From positions 1 to 62,485 of the forward strand of contig WFQU01000032.1 of NCBI GenBank assembly GCA_015486845.1: DNA of 62,485 nt. The letters run 5' to 3'. Source of the stretch: Anaerolineae bacterium (lineage in GTDB: Bacteria; Chloroflexota; Anaerolineae; JAADDB01). Position 1 is the stretch's first letter; the number at the start of each line of letters is the position of its first letter. Of the stretch, positions 3,940-62,485 are shown one piece after another. A program made the translations under genes and the position numbers. The notes beneath the pieces were generated by a model. It saw only the letters and a list, made by a program, of their open reading frames with translations, was not told where the DNA came from and ran no database searches.

Positions 3940-5148
3940 TCAACGCAATTGTTCATTTAAATGCGCAATACTTTCTCTGATTTTAACTTCACTCTCAGGC
4001 GTGAGCATCCCTTTGCAAGCTACTGTTTCCACTAAGTTAAACTTGCTCTTCTCTAATTGCTCTTTTAGCTTCTTCCCTGCCGCCGCAGCCCAGCCGAAAA
4101 CCGTTATTAATACAAACGGTTTCTCGTATTCTACTTTTTTACACATCTCGCTCAAGATGAATTCCATGTAAGGGAAGACATCCGATTCATAGGTTTCAGT
4201 GCCCATCACGATGGCCTCGCTGTCGGCAATATCGCTTAGTATATCGGCTAAAGAAGCGTGATGATCGTCCACGATACGGTGCATAACCGGCGTATAACCC
4301 AGCTTTTTTAGCTCGTCCGCGGCAACATTCACGGATCTTTCCACAAAGCGATACATGGAGGAATAAACGATTGTGACTTTGCCCGGCTGGGGCGTTCCCT
4401 TTCCCCAATCCAGATAGGCCTGGATGATGCGCTCTGGCGCCTGGCGCCAGAGGAGGCCGTGGGCCGGTAGAATCATCTTGGGATCGACGCCTAATTTCTG
4501 TAACTTTGCTACATTTTGGGCGATCTTCTCTTTGTAATGACCTATAACCGTTGTCGTATATTTCCTCGCAAAGGGCAGGTAATTGTCTACTTTGATCTCG
4601 TCATCAAATGTACCGCTGGGGATTGAGAATCCCCCGAAAATATCGCCGGTAATAATGATGCCCTCTGCGGGCAAATAAGTGATCATCGTCTCAGGCCAGT
4701 GCAGCCACGGTGTTTGGACAAACGTTAACGTTCTGCCACCGATGGTCAGCGTATCGCCATTTTTTACTGGGCGAAACGACGGCGCTAGACCGTATAATCC
4801 TTTGATCAACCGTTCGGAGAAAGGATGCCCTACAACTTGGGCCTGGTTCCTGGTGAGGGCTAATATTTCCGGCAAGCTGCCGCTGTGATCCGGCTCCATA
4901 TGTTGCACGACGATGTGCTTGATATCTTCTAAAGAAACCAGGCTGGAAAGGGTCTCAACGAATTCCTCTACAAAGAGATGTTTCCAACCGTCAAATAGCA
5001 CGGCGCCGGCCGGCGTCTTAAGCAAGTAGGCGTTATACGTTATTCCTTCCGGTATGGACCACATGGCTTCGAAGTACTTAGTGCTGTGATCTGCTACCTT
5101 TAAGAGGTAAAGACTATCTGCTATTTCCTGTACTGTCACATCGGTCAT
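3940..5148 (-). CDS. fprA: flavodiiron protein (A-type flavoprotein; metallo-beta-lactamase-like plus flavodoxin-like domains)
   Basis: 402 aa. Di-iron motif HMEPDHSG and a C-terminal flavodoxin-like segment. Confidence 0.8.
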   Translation of the reverse strand: MTDVTVQEIADSLYLLKVADHSTKYFEAMWSIPEGITYNAYLLKTPAGAVLFDGWKHLFVEEFVETLSSLVSLEDIKHIVVQHMEPDHSGSLPEILALTRNQAQVVGHPFSERLIKGLYGLAPSFRPVKNGDTLTIGGRTLTFVQTPWLHWPETMITYLPAEGIIITGDIFGGFSIPSGTFDDEIKVDNYLPFARKYTTTVIGHYKEKIAQNVAKLQKLGVDPKMILPAHGLLWRQAPERIIQAYLDWGKGTPQPGKVTIVYSSMYRFVERSVNVAADELKKLGYTPVMHRIVDDHHASLADILSDIADSEAIVMGTETYESDVFPYMEFILSEMCKKVEYEKPFVLITVFGWAAAAGKKLKEQLEKSKFNLVETVACKGMLTPESEVKIRESIAHLNEQLR

Positions 5149-5261: not shown

Positions 5262-6056
5262 TTTGTGCCTTTGCGCCGCTGCGTCAACTTATTTCCAGCG
5301 GAGTTGGCATGGGCCTGCGGCGCACCACAGCGGATGAAAATCTCTTGACAAGATTGGGGATCGCAGGCTTGAGAGGTAATGCTACGGGGATAGGAATGGG
5401 ATTAGTTGATGACGGCTGACAATCTGTTTTATCTTCTTTCTTGGGGGCCAGCCCTCAAACCCCTACTGGGGGCGTTTCACCCCCCAGACCCCCTGAAAAA
5501 GGTTCTTGGCTGCGTCGTGGCCGGTTCGTTGCGGGTTATCACTTTCTACTGCCCCGCTGCTGTCCGCCGCCATCCTGTCGGCAACCAGTTCTAACATATT
5601 GTTGGCGGCTCGAGTTCGGATCAGTTTGATGCTATTCACTAGTGTGAACCAGGCCCGAGAACAAAGGTTTTTCGTATTACCGGCGCGACTGGCTGGCCTA
5701 AGCAACGACCAATGACCTATTTAATTCGTTTTACCAACTTAGCCGGGGGAACGTTTTTCGGAAGGGTTGGAGGGGAACCGTACGGTTCCCCTGCCGGGAG
5801 CTCGAGGGCAGCGCCCTCGAAAGAGAAAAAGAAGGCGAGATTATCTTTGATCAGAAGTTCAACTTCTTGAAGAAGTTGAACTTCTAAAATAGCAAAATCG
5901 CCCTACGGCGATTAGCCTGCAACCTGCGCAGGCAGGTTTCGCAGTTGTGGCAGAGATTTCTAATCGCCGGGCGGAGCAGCCTGCGTTGATCAGCGTTCTA
6001 TTTTTCGGAGGAGAGGGTGCCCTCGGCCACCCTCCAGAGAAGTTTATTTTCAGAGC
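5262..6056. repeat. mosaic repeat block R2: F7 inv, F5 inv, F10 inv, F6 inv, F8, F1 palindrome, F9
   Basis: 5465..5692 is an inverted copy of 283..513. 5696..6053 is a direct copy of 19643..19990. Confidence 0.9.
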
Positions 6057-9121: not shown

Positions 9122-9889
9122 ATGGAGATATTACGGGCTGGTGTGGCAACGTTAGGCTTATCGCTAACGGAACAACAGGTGGAACAGTTTCAGCGTTATT
9201 ACGAACTGCTAATTGACTGGAATCAGCGTTTTAATTTGACTCGCATCGTGGCACCTGAGGCTGTGCAAATACGACACTTTTTGGATAGCATCGCCGTCCT
9301 GCCTCTGCTGGCCGATTTATGGTCAGCGGCGCAAGAAACAAAGCCGGTCAGTAGGAAAATCGATGATCTCTTGCAAGCGTCATTACATGCCATGGATGTG
9401 GGCAGCGGTGCAGGCTTTCCGGGTATTCCCTTAGCGATCCTTTGGCCAAAACTGAAACTTACGCTCTTAGATGGCACCGCCAAGAAGATCCACTTTTTGC
9501 AGGAAGTTGTCGCCCAGCTATCGCTTCCCTATGTGCAGGTTGTGCAAGGTCGGGCTGAAGAAATAGGTCGGGTGAGCGCGCACCGCGGCCAGTACGATTT
9601 GGTCATGGCGCGGGCCTTGGCGCCGCTGCCGACATTGGTTGAATATCTATTGCCGCTTTGCCGGCAAGATGGACTCGTTCTGGCGTACAAAGGGCCGGCC
9701 GTGCGCCAAGAACTGGCTCCGGCGCTGTCTGCCATTGCTCTTTTAGGTGGGGAAGTCCTGCGATTAGTTCCCCTCACTGTTCCTGGTTTCGATGGAGAAC
9801 GGTTCATCTTAGCGCTGAGGAAAATTAGCCGTACGCCGCCGCAATACCCGCGCGGGGGCGGCAAGCCGCGCAAACAGCCCTTATTATAG
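9122..9889 (+). CDS. rsmG: 16S rRNA (guanine527-N7)-methyltransferase
   Basis: GidB-like layout, SAM motif DVGSGAGFPGIPLAI, 255 aa. Confidence 0.85.
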   Translation: MEILRAGVATLGLSLTEQQVEQFQRYYELLIDWNQRFNLTRIVAPEAVQIRHFLDSIAVLPLLADLWSAAQETKPVSRKIDDLLQASLHAMDVGSGAGFPGIPLAILWPKLKLTLLDGTAKKIHFLQEVVAQLSLPYVQVVQGRAEEIGRVSAHRGQYDLVMARALAPLPTLVEYLLPLCRQDGLVLAYKGPAVRQELAPALSAIALLGGEVLRLVPLTVPGFDGERFILALRKISRTPPQYPRGGGKPRKQPLL

Positions 9890-14351: not shown

Positions 14352-17300
14352 TTATTCTCCACATCCGGCCAACCGGTAACGGGACACGCTGCCAGCGGCA
14401 TAATTGGTCTGCCAAAGTGTACTGTTAGCCGCATCTAACAGCAAATCGCCCCAGCGAGTGCCTTGCGGCGGCGTGGCAATCTGCGCCGTCAGCCGATTCG
14501 TCCTCGTATCAAACAGCAACAACCGATTGGCCAGACCGTCCAACACAAAAAGCCAGTGCCGGTCCGGCGAAAGCTGCAATGCCGACGGCCAAATATCTTG
14601 CGCCAAGCGTTGCTGTTGCCCGGTTTGCAGATTCAGCATCGTAACTGTTTGCTGGCGCACATTACCGATAAAAAGACGGTGCCCCGGCTCGTCTACGGCC
14701 AACGAGAATGTTCCACCCGGCGTAAAAGCCACCGGCGCCACGGCATTATCTTTCGTTCGATACGTTTCTACCTGGCCTGCCAACAAGGGCAAGTAAAGTG
14801 TTTGCGTGCCATTGATCAACCAGGTTGGTTTGCCGGCCAGCGCCCAATGTCCGGTTTGGCTGCCATCATGCGGGTCTAAGCGCTCTAACTGACCCCGCGC
14901 GTAATTGTTTGACCACAAAGCGCCATTTTGCCAGGAAATGCCCCACGGCATGCCGGACAGCGGCCAAGTCGCCATTTTAGCACCGTTGTTATCATACACA
15001 GAAATTTGCCCGCTCAAGCGCTGGCTCAGGTACACTTGGCCCTGGTGGGCTACGAGGTCTATTGCCGGAACCGCCAAAGGACGCTGCCATCGTTCTATCC
15101 CGCTTTGTCGATCCAAATTTACCAGCATTGGATGTGCTTCGCCTAAGGCGACATACAGGCTACGCGCACCTATCGCTAATTTTTGGGGCGTCGCACCTAC
15201 GGGGAATGTGCCTGCTGTACGTAACGTACATGGTCGCGTTGTAACCGGCCCTACGGAAAAAAGGATGGCCGGCACGTAAGCGGTGTGTCCAGCCACGATG
15301 GACAATCCGTAATGCCAGCCCGGCTGCTCACCGAGACCGCTCACTTTGACGTAATAAAGCCCCCCTTCTGGGGCACGCCAACGAATTAGCGAAGCGGCAT
15401 CCCCTGGCGCAGCGTTGTTATTCTTGACCAAGAGACGAAGAGATTGGTCGTACAACTGCAATATCGTGTCGCCGCCGGTTTCCAGATTTTTCACGCTGAT
15501 ACGGTAAAACATTCCGGCGTGGCCGATGAAGCTGAACCAGTCTACGTCATTAACGGCGTGAATGGTGTGCCGGGCCGAGAGTGCGCCAGGTTGTAGAAAA
15601 GTTGCTCGTTTAGGTGTGTTGTCCGGCTCGTAAATATCGGGCCAGAGGAAATCCATAGATACGAGCCGACTGATATTGTTGGCCGGCTGCGGATCATTGG
15701 ATGCGTGCAAAAAAGCTTGGGCGGAGGCGTTATAAGGTAACGAAAGCCCGCTATCACGACTTTGCACTGTGAATGTCATGAAGCCGGTCGCCCCGGCGCG
15801 CAAGCTGGTCAAATGCCAACTGGACGCTTCCTGGTGCCAGAGTTGCGGGGCGGAAGCCACACTGAGGATAGTCAACGGTGTCGGTAAAGCCAAGGTCATG
15901 CGCAGATCATGTGCTAGGCCCGGGCCGTTGTTGCGATACCTCAGGACAAAGGTGCGGGGTTGGCGCGGCAGGATGGGCGTCGACGACCAATTTTGCCATT
16001 GGACAGCGAGATCGGCTATTTCCTGCACGGTCGTGATGGTTAAAGAATCTTGATTGTTGCTCAGGTTGATGTCCTTGCCGTTGCTGCTAACGGTGGCTTG
16101 GGCGTGGATTTCGCCCCCATTTGTGTTTCCCCATACGATCAACTGGCGCCGGCTCCCCGCCGGCAAATTGCCTAAATGCCAAACATCGGGCGCTGATTGG
16201 GTGTACGTCACCGGCGTGCTGCTTTGCCATTGGACGTCTTGCCAGCCGCCCGTCAGCGTCAGCGTCAGTGTTGCGCCGGCGGCTACCGCCGGACCGGTAT
16301 TGCCGTAGGTCAATGTGTAAGTCACAACGGCGCCATTGCCGGTCGTTTGGCTATCGCCTTGCATAGTCACGGATAGATCATTGGTCTGGGCGTGAATTTG
16401 TAAAGCCGGATCGCCAAACAGGATGTAAGTATCGATCAAATCGTAAAATGGCGCGGCGCTGGGCGTTCGATAAAGGCGCAGTTTCCCCGCCAAGGTATCT
16501 ACACCGATACCCTGCTTTCCATCTCGGAAGAGCGCATCGAAAAAGCCGCGGTCCAAATAGTCGTGTCCGTGCGCAATGCCCAACCCCGAGGCTGCCCAAT
16601 CCGCTACCGCACCGCCGTTAGCCCGGCGAACCAATACTTCGGCCAGGGAATCGAAACCGGGCGCGTGAAAATAGCCGGTGTAGCAAGTCATTTCCATGAA
16701 GACTGGCAGCCGGCCGCCGTTGGACATGTGGGGCACATCATCCGTACTGAAAAGGATTTCCGCTGCCCACCAAGGAATGGCCCCGTGGCCAACAAAATTG
16801 ACAATGAGGTCGCCCCGGTCGATGCCGTCACGCACGGCTTGGCGCGCCGCTAAGACATCTGTTTGTTCCCGTCCCAGGTACATTTTCTGTACTTGATAAC
16901 TATCCGGCACCAGTGCGGCAGCCGCATCGGAAAGCTGGTAGAAATCGCCGGCGCCGTCCGGATTATCAGAAACGAAGAAAAGGCGGTTCTGCCAATCCCC
17001 TGGCGGTGGAGCCGTCTGATAAGCGATGATCTTGCTGACCATGGCATCAGCGTCCTGCGGCGTATCCGCTGGCAAACGGCCAATGAGCATGTCCGGCAAC
17101 GGGTCATTCCCATCTACTGTCACATAACGGTTGTCCGTGGCCGTTTCGCCGATGAACGGGTCCACTAAACGCAACATGGGAGGAATAAAGTTCTTGCTGC
17201 CGCTATGCAGAACATCCCGGAAATCATAGGTGCCATCACCCAACAAAGTTACGTAAAGCGGTGGTGAGCCGGGCCAATGATGGTAGGCATCGGCTAAGAA

Positions 17301-19289
17301 ATTGTGAATCGCGTCGGGGCTCAAATTGCCGCCGTTGTATTCATCGTAAATATCTTGTACTGAGACCACCACCACGGCCAAGCCGTTAGCACGCCAGAAG
17401 GATGCTAACCGGCGCGCCGCGTTCAGGAAATCGGGGTGCGTAATGAGGATGTAATCGGCGTGTTGGTTGTATTGCCGCCACTGGGACGCCGAATCTGCTT
17501 CCAGGCGCAATGGGGCCCGCAACGCCGCCTCGCTCCAAGCTAAATAGTGTGTGTTTGCCGCGGCTTGCAGGCTGACGGTGAGTCGATAGTGGTCGCCGGC
17601 AAGCGTGACGTTGCCATTCGCGACGTCGCGAATGTTGGCCGGATCTTCGATGCGCCAGAGGTGAATGGAGCTAGTGGAAAAACCGCTGAGTTGGAGCAGA
17701 TGGCGAGCCTGATCCGGCCAAGTGAGCGGTAAGATGTTCTCGGCCGCAACGAATTGGCGGTGATAGCATAGCGTCAGCCAGTTGATGTAAGCGCTATCCT
17801 CGCCAGCCACGATGTTGCCCGGCGCGTGCAGGCGGATGCTATTCTCGCCCGTGTGCAGCAATTGGGCGGGGAACGTGGTCGTAAACGTGTACGGCGTGCG
17901 TCCGTCCCAGTAAGCGTCGCCCACCGGTGTGCCATTGATCTGGAAAGTGGCATGATGGTCCGGCGCGATGACCGCATAGCTGGAAGCGCCCTGCATCGCG
18001 ACGGTTAAAGTCGCGTCGCCGGCCAGAACCGGAGCGGGCAGCGTGCCGGTAAACCAGCGCGTTGGGTGGTTGATCATGCGCCCCTGGCTATAATACGTCC
18101 AAAACCAGTGGTCGGCGCCTTCCTGCCACGGCATGTTGCTGCGATAAATGTGATCTTCTTCTAAGTGCAGGCAAGCGGCTGTGTCGGCAAGAGGCTGACC
18201 GCCTTGGACTGGGTTACCATTTTCGGAGGCAATGCGTTTCCCCGGCCGGTCATCCGCTGTCAACCAGTAGGTGTTTTCGTCGCCGTAACGGCTACGTCGC
18301 TTCTGTCCGTAAAACCAAAGTGTATCGCCGGGATCAAAATGGCCGTCGCCGCCATCGTTAATCTGTATGGCCAGTTCCTGGCCGGCATGCCACAAATGCC
18401 AGTGCGCCGGATCGCTGCCGCTGACAGGAAAGCCGGCGGCAACTAACGTTTGATAGGTTAGTTGGTAAATACCATCTGCGGCGACGATGATCTTGAAGCT
18501 TCCGGGCAGGTTGGCCGGCGTCAAGGAGGCTGCATTCGTAGCACGCGCAGAGGTAGCCGCAAAGAACGGTGTGACACCGTCGGGGTTGAGAACCTGTTGG
18601 CGCAGGAGCTGCGCTATTGGGTCGTTGCCATTGCTACCATCCATGGCATTGATCCGGGTAGCCGGCGCTCGAATGTTTACTACGATGTGTGGCGCGTAGC
18701 GCACTTTATCCGGCCCGACCAGTTGGTAGGGATAGATGATCAGCCGGGCTAACCGCTGGCCGCGCAGCGTGCCGATCTCCTGCCACGAGACGATTTGTTT
18801 TGGATACGGATAGCTAATCGGGGCCGGATCTGCCCAGCTTGTTTTGACGCTTGGGTATTGATGGTTGACTGGACTGGCTAAAGGGTCTAATAAACCATCG
18901 CGCTGCTCCGGAGCGACGGACGCGGCGGGCAGCCAATGGCCTGCTAATGTTTTCGTTATGGTCGCTTCACCTTGCCAACTAACATCCAATTGACCTGATG
19001 GCGGCAAGGCCAGCAAAAAAGTGTAAACAGGCAGGGCCGGGTAAGTGGGCTTGTTCAATAGATCGCTGCCGGCGGGCGGGAGCAGCCGGACGTAAGAAAT
19101 GCCCGCGTGATCAATGCCTTCTGTATCCGGCCAAGGCGCATTTAATGTCACGCTACTGTTGCCGGCCACGTTTTGGATCTGCCAAGGCGTTTCCTGCGCC
19201 AAAGCATTAGGGATGCGTAATCCCAGGATAATAATCACTAATAAAAAGAAGCTCATGTCGATGATGTGGGGATATTGTTTGTTGGGCAC
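14352..19289 (-). CDS. secreted multidomain peptidase C25 (gingipain-like) family protein with DUF11-like repeats, a pre-peptidase C-terminal (PPC) domain and a C-terminal beta-propeller
   Basis: Signal peptide MSFFLLVIIILGL. C25-like block ADYILITHPDF...LLGDGTYDF. Candidate catalytic His in NFVGHGA and Cys in EMTCYTGYF. PPC-like DVDWFSF...YYVKV. YVTN-like repeats at the C-terminus. Confidence 0.8.
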   Translation of the reverse strand: MPNKQYPHIIDMSFFLLVIIILGLRIPNALAQETPWQIQNVAGNSSVTLNAPWPDTEGIDHAGISYVRLLPPAGSDLLNKPTYPALPVYTFLLALPPSGQLDVSWQGEATITKTLAGHWLPAASVAPEQRDGLLDPLASPVNHQYPSVKTSWADPAPISYPYPKQIVSWQEIGTLRGQRLARLIIYPYQLVGPDKVRYAPHIVVNIRAPATRINAMDGSNGNDPIAQLLRQQVLNPDGVTPFFAATSARATNAASLTPANLPGSFKIIVAADGIYQLTYQTLVAAGFPVSGSDPAHWHLWHAGQELAIQINDGGDGHFDPGDTLWFYGQKRRSRYGDENTYWLTADDRPGKRIASENGNPVQGGQPLADTAACLHLEEDHIYRSNMPWQEGADHWFWTYYSQGRMINHPTRWFTGTLPAPVLAGDATLTVAMQGASSYAVIAPDHHATFQINGTPVGDAYWDGRTPYTFTTTFPAQLLHTGENSIRLHAPGNIVAGEDSAYINWLTLCYHRQFVAAENILPLTWPDQARHLLQLSGFSTSSIHLWRIEDPANIRDVANGNVTLAGDHYRLTVSLQAAANTHYLAWSEAALRAPLRLEADSASQWRQYNQHADYILITHPDFLNAARRLASFWRANGLAVVVVSVQDIYDEYNGGNLSPDAIHNFLADAYHHWPGSPPLYVTLLGDGTYDFRDVLHSGSKNFIPPMLRLVDPFIGETATDNRYVTVDGNDPLPDMLIGRLPADTPQDADAMVSKIIAYQTAPPPGDWQNRLFFVSDNPDGAGDFYQLSDAAAALVPDSYQVQKMYLGREQTDVLAARQAVRDGIDRGDLIVNFVGHGAIPWWAAEILFSTDDVPHMSNGGRLPVFMEMTCYTGYFHAPGFDSLAEVLVRRANGGAVADWAASGLGIAHGHDYLDRGFFDALFRDGKQGIGVDTLAGKLRLYRTPSAAPFYDLIDTYILFGDPALQIHAQTNDLSVTMQGDSQTTGNGAVVTYTLTYGNTGPAVAAGATLTLTLTGGWQDVQWQSSTPVTYTQSAPDVWHLGNLPAGSRRQLIVWGNTNGGEIHAQATVSSNGKDINLSNNQDSLTITTVQEIADLAVQWQNWSSTPILPRQPRTFVLRYRNNGPGLAHDLRMTLALPTPLTILSVASAPQLWHQEASSWHLTSLRAGATGFMTFTVQSRDSGLSLPYNASAQAFLHASNDPQPANNISRLVSMDFLWPDIYEPDNTPKRATFLQPGALSARHTIHAVNDVDWFSFIGHAGMFYRISVKNLETGGDTILQLYDQSLRLLVKNNNAAPGDAASLIRWRAPEGGLYYVKVSGLGEQPGWHYGLSIVAGHTAYVPAILFSVGPVTTRPCTLRTAGTFPVGATPQKLAIGARSLYVALGEAHPMLVNLDRQSGIERWQRPLAVPAIDLVAHQGQVYLSQRLSGQISVYDNNGAKMATWPLSGMPWGISWQNGALWSNNYARGQLERLDPHDGSQTGHWALAGKPTWLINGTQTLYLPLLAGQVETYRTKDNAVAPVAFTPGGTFSLAVDEPGHRLFIGNVRQQTVTMLNLQTGQQQRLAQDIWPSALQLSPDRHWLFVLDGLANRLLLFDTRTNRLTAQIATPPQGTRWGDLLLDAANSTLWQTNYAAGSVSRYRLAGCGE

Positions 19290-19642: not shown

Positions 19643-20098
19643 GCCTAAGCAGCAACCAGTGACCTATTTAATTCGTTTTACCACCTTAGCCGGGGGAACG
19701 CTTTTCGGAAGAGTTGGCGGGGAACCGTACGGTTCCCCTGCCGGGAGCTTGAGGGCAGCGCCCTCGAAAAAGAAAAAGGAGGCGACATTATCTTTTGACC
19801 AGACATCGTCCATAGGCAAAGTCATGCTACGGGGATTAGCATGCAACCTGCGCAGGCAGGTTTTGCAGTTGTGGCAGCGATTTCTAATCGCCGGGCGAAG
19901 CAGACTGCGTTGATCAGCGTTCTATTTTTCGGAGAAGAGGGTAAACGAAGACAACGCCTTCGGCTACCCTCCAGGGAAGTTTATTTTCAGCGATCTCTCC
20001 TCTGAGCTGCGCTGCACTTAGCTTTTTCCCCTCCCCGATACGGGGAGGGAAAGGCTTGCCGTCCAAAGAGGCGGTAAGCCAGGGGAGAGGTCTTATTC
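19643..20098. repeat. mosaic repeat block R5: F8, F9, then F11 inverted
   Basis: 19643..19990 is collinear with 5696..6053. 20011..20098 is an inverted copy of 26730..26818. Confidence 0.9.
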
Positions 20099-55837: not shown

Positions 55838-56340
55838 CTCCTCTGAAAATAGAACGCAGATTAACGCTGATGCACGCTGATCTTAATTTTCATCCGCTGT
55901 GGTGTGTCGCAGGCTCATGATAACTCCCTTGAAAATAAAATAGGACGCAGATTAACGCTGGCTGCGCACGCAGATAAAAAATCAGGCCTTCTTTAAAGAA
56001 GTTCAACTTCTCGAAGAAGTTGAACTTTTAATTGACGGGGTTGGCCAACTTAGCGCACGGAGCTCAAAGCTCCGTGCTACGTAAATGATAAGCCCCTTAG
56101 AAAGGGGCTGGTGTTAAGCTTCGCCCGGCGATTAGAGATCGCTGCTACAACTGCGAAACCTGCCTGCGCAGGTTGCCTGCTAATCGCCGTAGGGCGATTT
56201 TGCAGAGGTTGGCGCGACTTTTAGTCGCTGGGCCGAATCGTTATCCCAGGCCCCCAATTCTGGGGGGGTGTCGCTCTCCCACCAAGGTTTGGGGATAGGG
56301 CGCATTTTCAACCGCTGTGGTAGGCACCATAGGCTCATGA
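55838..56340. repeat. mosaic repeat block R12: M1, F5, M1 variant, F7, F1, F12, F2, F3, F9 inverted, F13, F5
   Basis: Fills the spacer between two glycosyltransferase genes. The left end lies 12 nt from ATG 55825 and the right end overlaps stop 56335-56337. Confidence 0.9.
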
Positions 56341-61337: not shown

Positions 61338-61961
61338 TCAATGCCCGGCGGCTGGTGGCTTGCGCCCCACAATGCTGGTCACAGCCTTGATTTGATCTTC
61401 TTGCCAATAGTTCAGTTCACGCTGGTCGATAATCGTCCAGTCGGAAAGCCATTGCCGCAATTCGCCAGGCCTCAGCATGTGTTTAGGGTCCATACCAGGC
61501 CGGAAATTGTGCCAGGCTTCGTTGAACGTTTCGTAAATGATCAAGCCATCTGGCTTGATCCATGTTTTTAGTGCCGGCGCTTTCTCCCGTTCCCAAAAGG
61601 AAAAGCCAACCAGCAAATCGAAACTATGCGGCGGGAAAGCTAATTCACGTACATCGCTCAGCACGAACAGGATTTGGTCCAATACACGGGCTGCCCCGGC
61701 GCGATGTTGTGCCCCTTGCAGCGCTCGCCGGCTGATGTCCGTTGCAATGACTCGGTAACCGCGTTGAGCTAACCAGACTGCATCCCGGCCCAGGCCACAA
61801 GCGATTTCCAGGGCGATGCCGCCTTTCAGAACAGCGTGATGCGCCACAAGCCATTGGTGGGCCTCACTGCGTTTTATGAATGGCAACTTTTCTTGGTACC
61901 GTTTATCCCATTTCTGTTGAATAACGCTACTGTCGGCCACATTACACTCCCCGGCAAACAT
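61338..61961 (-). CDS. class I SAM-dependent methyltransferase
   Basis: ALEIACGLGRDAVWLA SAM-binding motif, 207 aa. Confidence 0.75.
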   Translation of the reverse strand: MFAGECNVADSSVIQQKWDKRYQEKLPFIKRSEAHQWLVAHHAVLKGGIALEIACGLGRDAVWLAQRGYRVIATDISRRALQGAQHRAGAARVLDQILFVLSDVRELAFPPHSFDLLVGFSFWEREKAPALKTWIKPDGLIIYETFNEAWHNFRPGMDPKHMLRPGELRQWLSDWTIIDQRELNYWQEDQIKAVTSIVGRKPPAAGH

Positions 61962-62054
61962 AAAAACCTTGTCAAACCTCTTATTATAAGGAGATCATGC
62001 TTCTTAACCAAAAGAGAGCCTGCTTGAGCAAGCAGTTCCGAACGTCTCCTCTGA

Positions 62055-62485
62055 AAATCAGTTGACGCGGCGGCGCAAAGGCGCAGAGCGTCTAAAAAAA
62101 TTAGGCCTCCTTTAAGAAGTTCAACTTCTTGTAACTGTTTAGGCCCAAGCAGGTGGCAGGAAGAACGCCAAGGGTAGCCGACGGCAGTGCCGTCGGCTAC
62201 CCGCACCCACCCCCGTCGGCTACCCGCACCCGCCCTCAGTCACAGTGCAAAAAACTGCCTATTTGCATGCCAAGCGGGAAGACCTGAACAGTTACGACTT
62301 CTCGCAGAAGTTGAACTTCTAAGCCATCGCCAACGCTGCTGCGCTGAGGGAGACGATCTCGGCTTTACCAGGACTTGTGATGATACAGCGTTGGCCGACT
62401 TAGCGCACGGAGCTCAAAGCTCCGTGCTACGTAAATGATAAGCCCCTTAGAAAGGGGCTGGTGTTAAGCAGCCTCTTGGCAGAGG
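62055..62485. repeat. mosaic repeat block R13: M1/F7, F1 left arm, 177 bp nested insert, F1 right arm, F12, F2, F3; cut by the window edge
   Basis: Module matches to R3, R7 and R12. F1 arms at 62116-62129 and 62307-62319. Confidence 0.9.

Follow-up and report, generated by a model that had tools for sequence, protein, structure and literature searches.

A probable ISBst12/IS66-type MITE nested within a REP-like doublet in an Anaerolineae bacterium

Introduction

Near the right end of the window (the whole 62,485-nt stretch of DNA analysed here), the two 15-nt arms of a palindrome that we term F1 are perfectly complementary and have 176 nt between them, whereas the arms of the remaining four F1 pairs in the window lie 5–6 nt apart. 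This locus raises the question of what came to lie between the arms, by which route it arrived, and why the same junction is met elsewhere in the genome. A sequence-only reading had proposed that a MITE-like and once mobile element targets the apex of the F1 hairpin, and had pointed to hairpin-targeting transposons of the IS200/IS605, IS110 or IS91 type.

The window is contig C32 of the source assembly (G000; 182 contigs, 3.28 Mb), and all C-numbers below denote contigs of that assembly. Comparisons were made with Anaerolineae bacterium S014_12 (G004; WFQT01), which belongs to the same GTDB family, with G016 from another family of the same class, and with the further class relatives G053 and G050. 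A second assembly, GCA_027008065.1, was 100% identical over 3485 nt, element included, but may derive from the same reads as the source assembly and may therefore not be independent confirmation. Searches with two sequence patterns returned only the known G004 contig and chance matches among public genome contigs, and zero matches among public metagenome contigs.

Anatomy of the interrupted palindrome

The features of the interrupted site are as follows.

62041..62114, + strand: left repeat module (..gaaaatcagttgacgcggcggcgcaaaggcgcagagcgtctaaaaaaattaggcctcctttaa), which adjoins F1 at about 99 of 237 F1 sites
62115..62129, no strand: left REP unit of the F1 doublet AGAAGTTCAACTTCT, a self-complementary 7-1-7 unit, intact
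62123..62130, no strand: target-site duplication, copy 1 AACTTCTT
62131..62295, + strand: MITE, 165 nt, non-coding, ISBst12/IS66 end type (other copies 142–146 nt)
62131..62143, + strand: left terminal inverted repeat GTAACTGTTTAGG
62172..62202, no strand: REP-like hairpin cargo GGGTAGCCGACGGCAGTGCCGTCGGCTACCC, 31 nt, stem arms GGGTAGCCGACGGCA/TGCCGTCGGCTACCC
62190..62235, + strand: 23-nt tandem duplication (2 x CCGTCGGCTACCCGCACCC[A/G]CCC), private to the window copy
62283..62295, + strand: right terminal inverted repeat CCTGAACAGTTAC
62296..62303, no strand: target-site duplication, copy 2 GACTTCTC
62306..62320, no strand: right REP unit of the F1 doublet AGAAGTTGAACTTCT, intact; 62304–62305 (GC) are the remainder of the original loop

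F1 is indeed split by a nested insert with inverted termini, as the sequence-only reading had described. The arms are each a self-complementary unit in their own right, and the termini GTAACTGTT/AACAGTTAC extend in the window copy to 13 nt, of which 12 are complementary; the terminal inverted repeats are perfect in the copies at C42:4543 and C42:9305. The limits of the element (62131–62295, GTAAC...GTTAC) were set from a copy at C69:10445-10588 that lies outside F1 between unrelated flanks, since homology to that copy begins at GTAGCTGTTCAGG and stops at CCTGAATAGTTAC.

The 8-mers that border the element match at 6 of 8 bases in the window copy, and those that flank the copies at C42:2580 and C42:9305 are identical (8/8) and read AACTTCTC. 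Removal of 62131–62303, that is the element and one 8-mer, restores GAAGTTCAACTTC-TTGCA-GAAGTTGAACTTC with standard F1 geometry, and such reconstructed sites run unbroken against empty paralogues (see below). It follows that a staggered cut where the left arm meets the loop gave rise to the insertion. The proposed entry at the hairpin apex does not hold, as the target is made up of the first loop base and the 7 nt of the left arm that precede it. Duplication of this 8-bp target left both 15-nt F1 units intact.

The inner hairpin that had been noticed within the insert proved to be a GACGG/CCGTC variant (GGGTAGCCGACGG..CCGTCGGCTACCC) of a second REP-like family, which numbers about 94 copies genome-wide. 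This hairpin occupies the same place in every copy of the MITE, including a shorter one in G004, and is therefore old cargo and not a later insertion. The direct duplication reported for the insert also exists, although its unit is 23 nt and not 19 nt; the two units (62190–62212 and 62213–62235) are 96% identical, and the duplication is missing from the other four copies. Three levels and two mechanistic classes are thus layered at this site, with a Y1-type REP hairpin in a DDE-type MITE and that MITE in a Y1-type REP doublet.

Copies of the element and empty sites

A BLAST search of the genome with the insert identified four more copies, at C42:2580-2721, C42:4543-4688, C42:9305-9446 (inverted) and C69:10445-10588, and pairwise identity among the five ranged from 87.5 to 97.9%. 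All three C42 copies lie in split F1 palindromes at exactly the position seen in the window, and the C69 copy has its own flanking duplication. The sole copy in G004 is shorter, lies outside F1 and has no F1 arms. Overall, the element was located in F1 in four of five copies in the source genome, two of which belong to a block duplicate, and in none of one in G004; a search for further F1-MITE junctions in both genomes found none past the known four. The sequence-only reading would have been refuted by a unique insert between two independent arms, which is at odds with the multiple copies and with the three others in split F1.

Each of the four F1 sites, and the C69 site as well, has paralogues that span the junction without the element. 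The reconstructed empty C42:2580 site matched C158:75-194 at 94.2% over 120 nt, the C42:4543 site matched C106:11312-11431 at 95% over 120 nt, and the window site matched C168:3591-3696 at 89.6% over 106 nt, each unbroken across the junction. The left module of the window site is likewise 94–95% identical to the same module at the empty F1 sites of C158, C106, C160, C103 and C153. Terminal inverted repeats, an 8-bp duplication, further copies and unbroken empty paralogous sites together support the interpretation of the insert as a true, once-mobile MITE-like element, as had been suspected from the window.

The element also belongs to a wider group. Pairing of fuzzy GTAACTGNTCAG matches with its complement in the source genome yielded a family of about 20 short elements of 86–238 nt with common ends and variable interiors, and about 15 of the other members do not lie in F1. 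For 16 family members outside F1, the flanking 8-mers matched at a mean of 5.5 of 8 bases, in comparison to 1.5–2.6 in shifted registers (controls about 2.2), and none of 20,000 permutations of flank pairing reached the observed mean. One member, at C180:32555, has a perfect 8/8 duplication, as do elements with the same ends in G016 (CCCGCAGA and GTCGCATT). The target duplications have no consensus across the family, and the wider family showed no preference for palindromes. Many genomes of the class show enrichment of the end motif GTRACTRYTCAGSC, with 17 occurrences in G000, 33 in G004, 39 in G053, 13 in G016 and 96 in G050, in comparison to 0–2 for the reversed control.

F1 as the REP doublet of a RAYT

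The window contains 11 occurrences of the 13-mer core of the F1 arm, where 0.09 would be expected. Genome-wide there are 461 F1 arms and 198 exact pairs of 13-mers with a spacing of exactly 5 nt, and about 249 F1 sites when up to one mismatch per arm is allowed; F1 makes up roughly 0.2% of the genome. The exact pattern occurs 198 times in the source genome and 13 times in G004, and was absent from 29 other relatives. Just three pairs in C-then-G order have long centres in the source genome, of 178 nt (window), 159 nt (C42:4528) and 65 nt (C99:6353).

Both Y1_Tnp/RAYT-like genes of the source genome, on C99 and C73, have F1 or a variant (GACGTTCAACTTC-N5-GAAGTTGAACGTC) within about 30–250 nt, and F1 thus behaves as the REP doublet of a RAYT. 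The C99 protein is truncated by the contig end and carries the motifs NHYHLLV and YIHRNP (HUH- and YxHxNP-type); the NCBIfam model REP_Tyr_transpos matched it with E = 1.3e-19 and 70.5 bits, which lies below the 80-bit cut-off, but the protein is incomplete. The C73 gene contains an internal TAG stop and has palindromes on both sides.

Classical REP units carry a conserved GTAG head, and no GTAG-type head is present in the F1 unit AGAAGTTCAACTTCT. In comparison to the REP/BIME/REPIN and RAYT systems of E. coli and Pseudomonas fluorescens (PMC3333891, PMC3116915), F1 is similarly extragenic and present in high copy number, pairs two inverted copies of a short palindromic unit, flanks RAYT-like genes and sits within mosaics of other modules. 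It differs from these systems in that its units are A/T-rich self-complementary 15-mers lacking such a head, and in that the doublet is unusually compact with a 3-nt centre.

Several arrangements around these genes were observed in passing. At C99:6353-6443 (L044:1073-1163), an F1 with arms 65 nt apart has an F1 variant some 100 nt away and the RAYT-like gene C99:6583-7131 some 350 nt away. On C73 (L046:1150-2000), the RAYT pseudogene with its one TAG is bracketed by an F1 variant and F1, and a directly repeated segment of about 100 nt, taken from the 5' end of a neighbouring gene and likewise ending in an F1-variant arm, flanks this unit. Across F1 sites genome-wide (e.g. window positions 5854, 26844, 49807 and 55998), the F1 centre was found in both orientations relative to the same flanking module (TGCGA 23 and TCGCA 11; TTCAA 18 and TTGAA 11; TTCGA 14 and TCGAA 10), from which the 3-nt centre appears to flip among copies while the arms stay fixed. 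Within the window, the block at 19690–19960 has no F1, as had been noted before, and its paralogue at 5724–6015 has one.

End type and the mobilizing transposase

GTAA ends together with an 8-bp (8–9 bp) direct repeat form the signature of the IS66 family in the ISfinder family table. Hairpin-targeting transposons of the IS200/IS605, IS110 or IS91 type are not known to have terminal inverted repeats or a fixed multi-bp target duplication. The GTAA ends and 8-bp duplication of the insert accordingly place it with the IS66 family, ISBst12 group, and not with the hairpin-targeting types to which it had been referred. Genes of the latter kind do exist in the genome, namely the RAYT genes and one IS110-family gene, but they showed no link to the element. 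The IS110-family frame (DEDD_Tnp_IS110; C2:333-1670, - strand, 446 aa) is the sole open frame of that family in the genome, and an intact F1 at C2:14-44, about 290 nt away, is not its insertion site.

ISDge4 of Deinococcus geothermalis, a member of the ISBst12 group that has been seen to transpose, has the ends GTGACTACTCAGCA / GTAACTGCTCAGCA and produces an 8-bp direct repeat (PMC12898284). Like ISBst12 and ISDge4, the MITE has ends that begin with GTAA and an 8-bp target duplication, its terminal core GTAACTG(C/T)TCAG is almost letter for letter GTAACTGCTCAGCA, and ends of this kind enclose a single-ORF IS66-type transposase in the related genome G004. Unlike the autonomous members of the group, the MITE is non-coding and 142–165 nt long, its body consists of a borrowed REP-like hairpin and unique sequence, and the same assembly yielded no transposase of the group. 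MITEs of ISBst12 type that combine GTAACT ends, an 8-bp duplication and hairpin cargo are an already known kind.

The G004 element (contig C471 of that genome; L024:111-1668) is 1558 bp long, has perfect 16-bp ends GTAACTATTCAGCCTG, and encodes a transposase with DUF6444, zf-IS66 and DDE_Tnp_IS66 domains that is frameshifted and broken into three frames (NCBIfam transpos_IS66, E = 3e-43). No target duplication was recognizable at its borders (1/8 bases). Similarity between this IS and the MITE past the 12-nt terminal core was not significant (z 1.2–1.6), which rules it out as the direct parent and leaves it as an IS of the same end class.

PF03050 (IS66-family transposase) had no match in the source genome, where an unassembled IS is possible given its 182 contigs. 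As no IS66-family transposase was found in the assembly, the role of an IS66-type enzyme in the moving is inferred. The end motif GTRACTRYTCAGSC is abundant in G053 and G016, yet PF03050 has no match there, as in the source genome, which indicates that MITEs occur in several members of the class where no transposase is visible. A candidate autonomous parent in the source genome, consisting of ends paired 2134 nt apart on C161, was ruled out as an inverted duplication of ordinary genes. This contig begins and ends with the same 2286 bp in perfect inverted orientation (C161:1-2286 and 16951-19236), a segment that encodes an MFS-like transporter and a histidine kinase and whose duplication is probably an assembly artefact.

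Very probably, then, the insert is an ISBst12/IS66-type MITE that landed in the F1 REP doublet by an 8-bp staggered cut. In the mechanism that we propose, an IS66-family DDE transposase of the ISBst12 group, encoded by a single ORF, would act in trans on a family of short, non-coding elements with GTAACTG(C/T)TCAG(C/G) termini and would cut its target with an 8-bp stagger. The target here would be AACTTCTC, the last 7 nt of the left F1 unit and the first base of the loop, and its duplication on insertion would leave a whole 15-nt F1 unit on each side. F1 itself would be a doublet of REP units tied to the RAYT-type Y1 transposase of this genome, and the window copy would have gained its private 23-nt tandem duplication after the insertion.

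Recurrence of the same junction

Four sites have the MITE at the same F1 position. Agreement to the base, within a palindrome that accounts for about 0.2% of the genome, excludes chance as the cause. The insertion may instead have been multiplied after it occurred, or it may have been repeated.

According to the first of these explanations, the MITE entered F1 once or a very few times, and the filled composite of left module, F1 with MITE, and right module later increased in number through block duplication, homologous recombination or gene conversion within a set of roughly 100 similar composites. We consider this plausible, although it falls a little short of being probable. C42:2503-3019 and C42:4466-4984 form a recent 521-bp block duplicate at 94% identity, with 97.9% identity between the two MITEs and with left flanks that are mutual nearest relatives (95.3%). 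The third C42 copy shares about 340 bp with this pair at 86–87% in inverted orientation, and the three C42 MITEs have in common a derived ATGCC where the copies in C32, C69 and G004 read ACGCC. Additionally, all four filled sites have one position and one orientation relative to the same left module, which is present at only 99 of 237 F1 sites, and the absence of a palindrome preference in the wider family also agrees with multiplication of a composite.

The window copy fits multiplication less readily. Its MITE is about 90% identical to those of C42, whereas its flanks are just 82–86% alike to the C42 flanks, and each site has closer empty paralogues at 92–95%. Right of F1 lies a further feature of relevance here.

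62323..62388, + strand: second independent nested insert, about 66 nt, with a 10-nt inverted repeat GCCAACGCTG/CAGCGTTGGC (62329–62338, 62386–62395)

This second insert is present at C125:215 and C168:3621 and absent at C106:11356 and window position 55998, and among the paralogues all four combinations of presence and absence of MITE and second insert exist. The four combinations therefore indicate either recurrence of insertion or recombination, and multiplication of one filled composite would need recombination within about 20–100 bp of homology. Clustering by flanks did not group the filled sites except for the pair C42:2580/4543, and star-like divergence weakens this test both ways.

Alternatively, the transposase of the GTAACTGTTCAGG subfamily may prefer the sequence or structure of F1, with at least two independent insertions at AACTTCTC. 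We regard such target selection as a tentative possibility. The identical junction stands in two or three flank lineages, and its base-exact position is beyond what chance can account for in so small a fraction of the genome. The terminal repeats of the subfamily read ..TTCAGG and those of the other family members ..CTCAGC, which would allow for a distinct transposase. REPs are also documented hot spots for IS of the IS3, IS110, IS4, IS256 and IS5 families (PMC1525189). The known REP-targeting IS (IS1397, ISKpn1, IS621, ISPpu9/10, ISPa11 and ISRm22; Tobes and Pareja 2006, PMC1525189) resemble the present case in that a mobile element lies inside a REP, repeatedly at the same position. They are autonomous members of the five families named above, however, with all or nearly all copies in REPs, whereas the element here is an IS66-type MITE with four of five copies in a REP doublet, which may not stem from separate events.

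Several observations weigh against selection of F1. The C69:10445 copy and the G004 copy lie outside F1, though G004 has 13 F1 sites, and neither genome has an additional F1-MITE junction. The filled sites all use the same one of the symmetry-equivalent positions beside the same module, the IS66 family is not among the known REP-targeting IS, and the target duplications of the family have no consensus. If the repeated junction does reflect target selection, the IS66 family would join the REP-recognizing transposases and the compact 31-nt target would be suited to study; if it does not, the case is one of ordinary selfish DNA.

As both REP units survive the insertion, a RAYT could still recognize F1, and the enlarged doublet of F1 and MITE may in principle have been copied as one unit. 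The 15-nt units are intact in four of four filled copies, F1-flanked RAYT genes exist in the genome, and an F1 with a 65-nt centre adjoins one of them (C99:6353-6443), all of which agree with this idea. We nevertheless consider it improbable. Homology among filled sites runs well past F1, on the left in 4/4 and on the right in 3/4, which makes the copied unit larger than F1. No filled F1 occurs in an otherwise F1-free context, and of the two RAYT genes one is truncated by the contig end and the other has a stop codon. That the junction in at least two flank lineages reflects either IS66/ISBst12 targeting of the REP doublet or a DDE-type MITE as RAYT-moved cargo is a joint possibility to which we give some weight, short of favouring it, and if either were true, two mechanistically unrelated kinds of selfish DNA would be coupled.

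The insert might also be something other than a transposed element, either because the 165 nt are a structured small-RNA gene or because a longer element has its true ends in the F1 arms and has elsewhere collapsed to ordinary F1. In favour of a structured product, the predicted fold of the region is far more stable than that of shuffled sequence (z = -6.7 and -5.9), but so stable a fold is the trivial outcome of nested inverted repeats. No Rfam family reached threshold, a permissive Rfam scan of 61900–62485 returned sub-threshold noise alone, and a promoter and terminator scan gave no signal attributable to the element. The 8-bp duplication and the empty paralogues are a transposition signature, and the copies without arms in C69 (with its own flanking duplication) and in G004 largely refute both versions, which we hold to be highly unlikely.

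Setting within the intergenic mosaic

The element-bearing spacer is a mosaic of repeat modules that lies upstream of a neighbouring gene.

61338..61961, - strand: class I methyltransferase gene, 207 aa

The nearest orthologue of this methyltransferase has 71% amino acid identity, and its spacer is 116 bp (L042:2885-3000) with no repeats. In the source lineage the same spacer (window position 61962 onwards) exceeds 1.3 kb and consists entirely of repeat modules; according to GCA_027008065.1 the mosaic continues more than 1.3 kb past the window end. With a spacer of 116 bp, the nearest relative has no allele of the insertion site and was set aside as a source of an orthologous empty site. The absence of repeats from its spacer indicates that the mosaic and everything nested in it are lineage-specific.

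The case is one of ordinary selfish DNA. It offers a concrete, datable event in the intergenic spacers of this Anaerolineae lineage, which are filled with repeat mosaics. The Y1/RAYT route is assumed for REP-like repeats, but at least one class of module in these mosaics came in through ordinary DDE transposition and left an 8-bp footprint. The mosaics are also layered, with a REP hairpin in a MITE, the MITE in a REP doublet, and the doublet in a composite. Nested MITEs and composite small repeats such as NEMIS/Correia, ERIC and IS66-type MITEs with hairpin cargo are similar in that small non-autonomous elements are layered in intergenic DNA, and the present arrangement differs from them in its three levels of two mechanistic classes.

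Such mosaics also occur as larger repeated units. On C42, an intergenic mosaic block of 340–521 bp is present three times within 7 kb (C42:2503-3019, 4466-4984 and 9193-9536), at 94% and 86–87% identity and with one block inverted.
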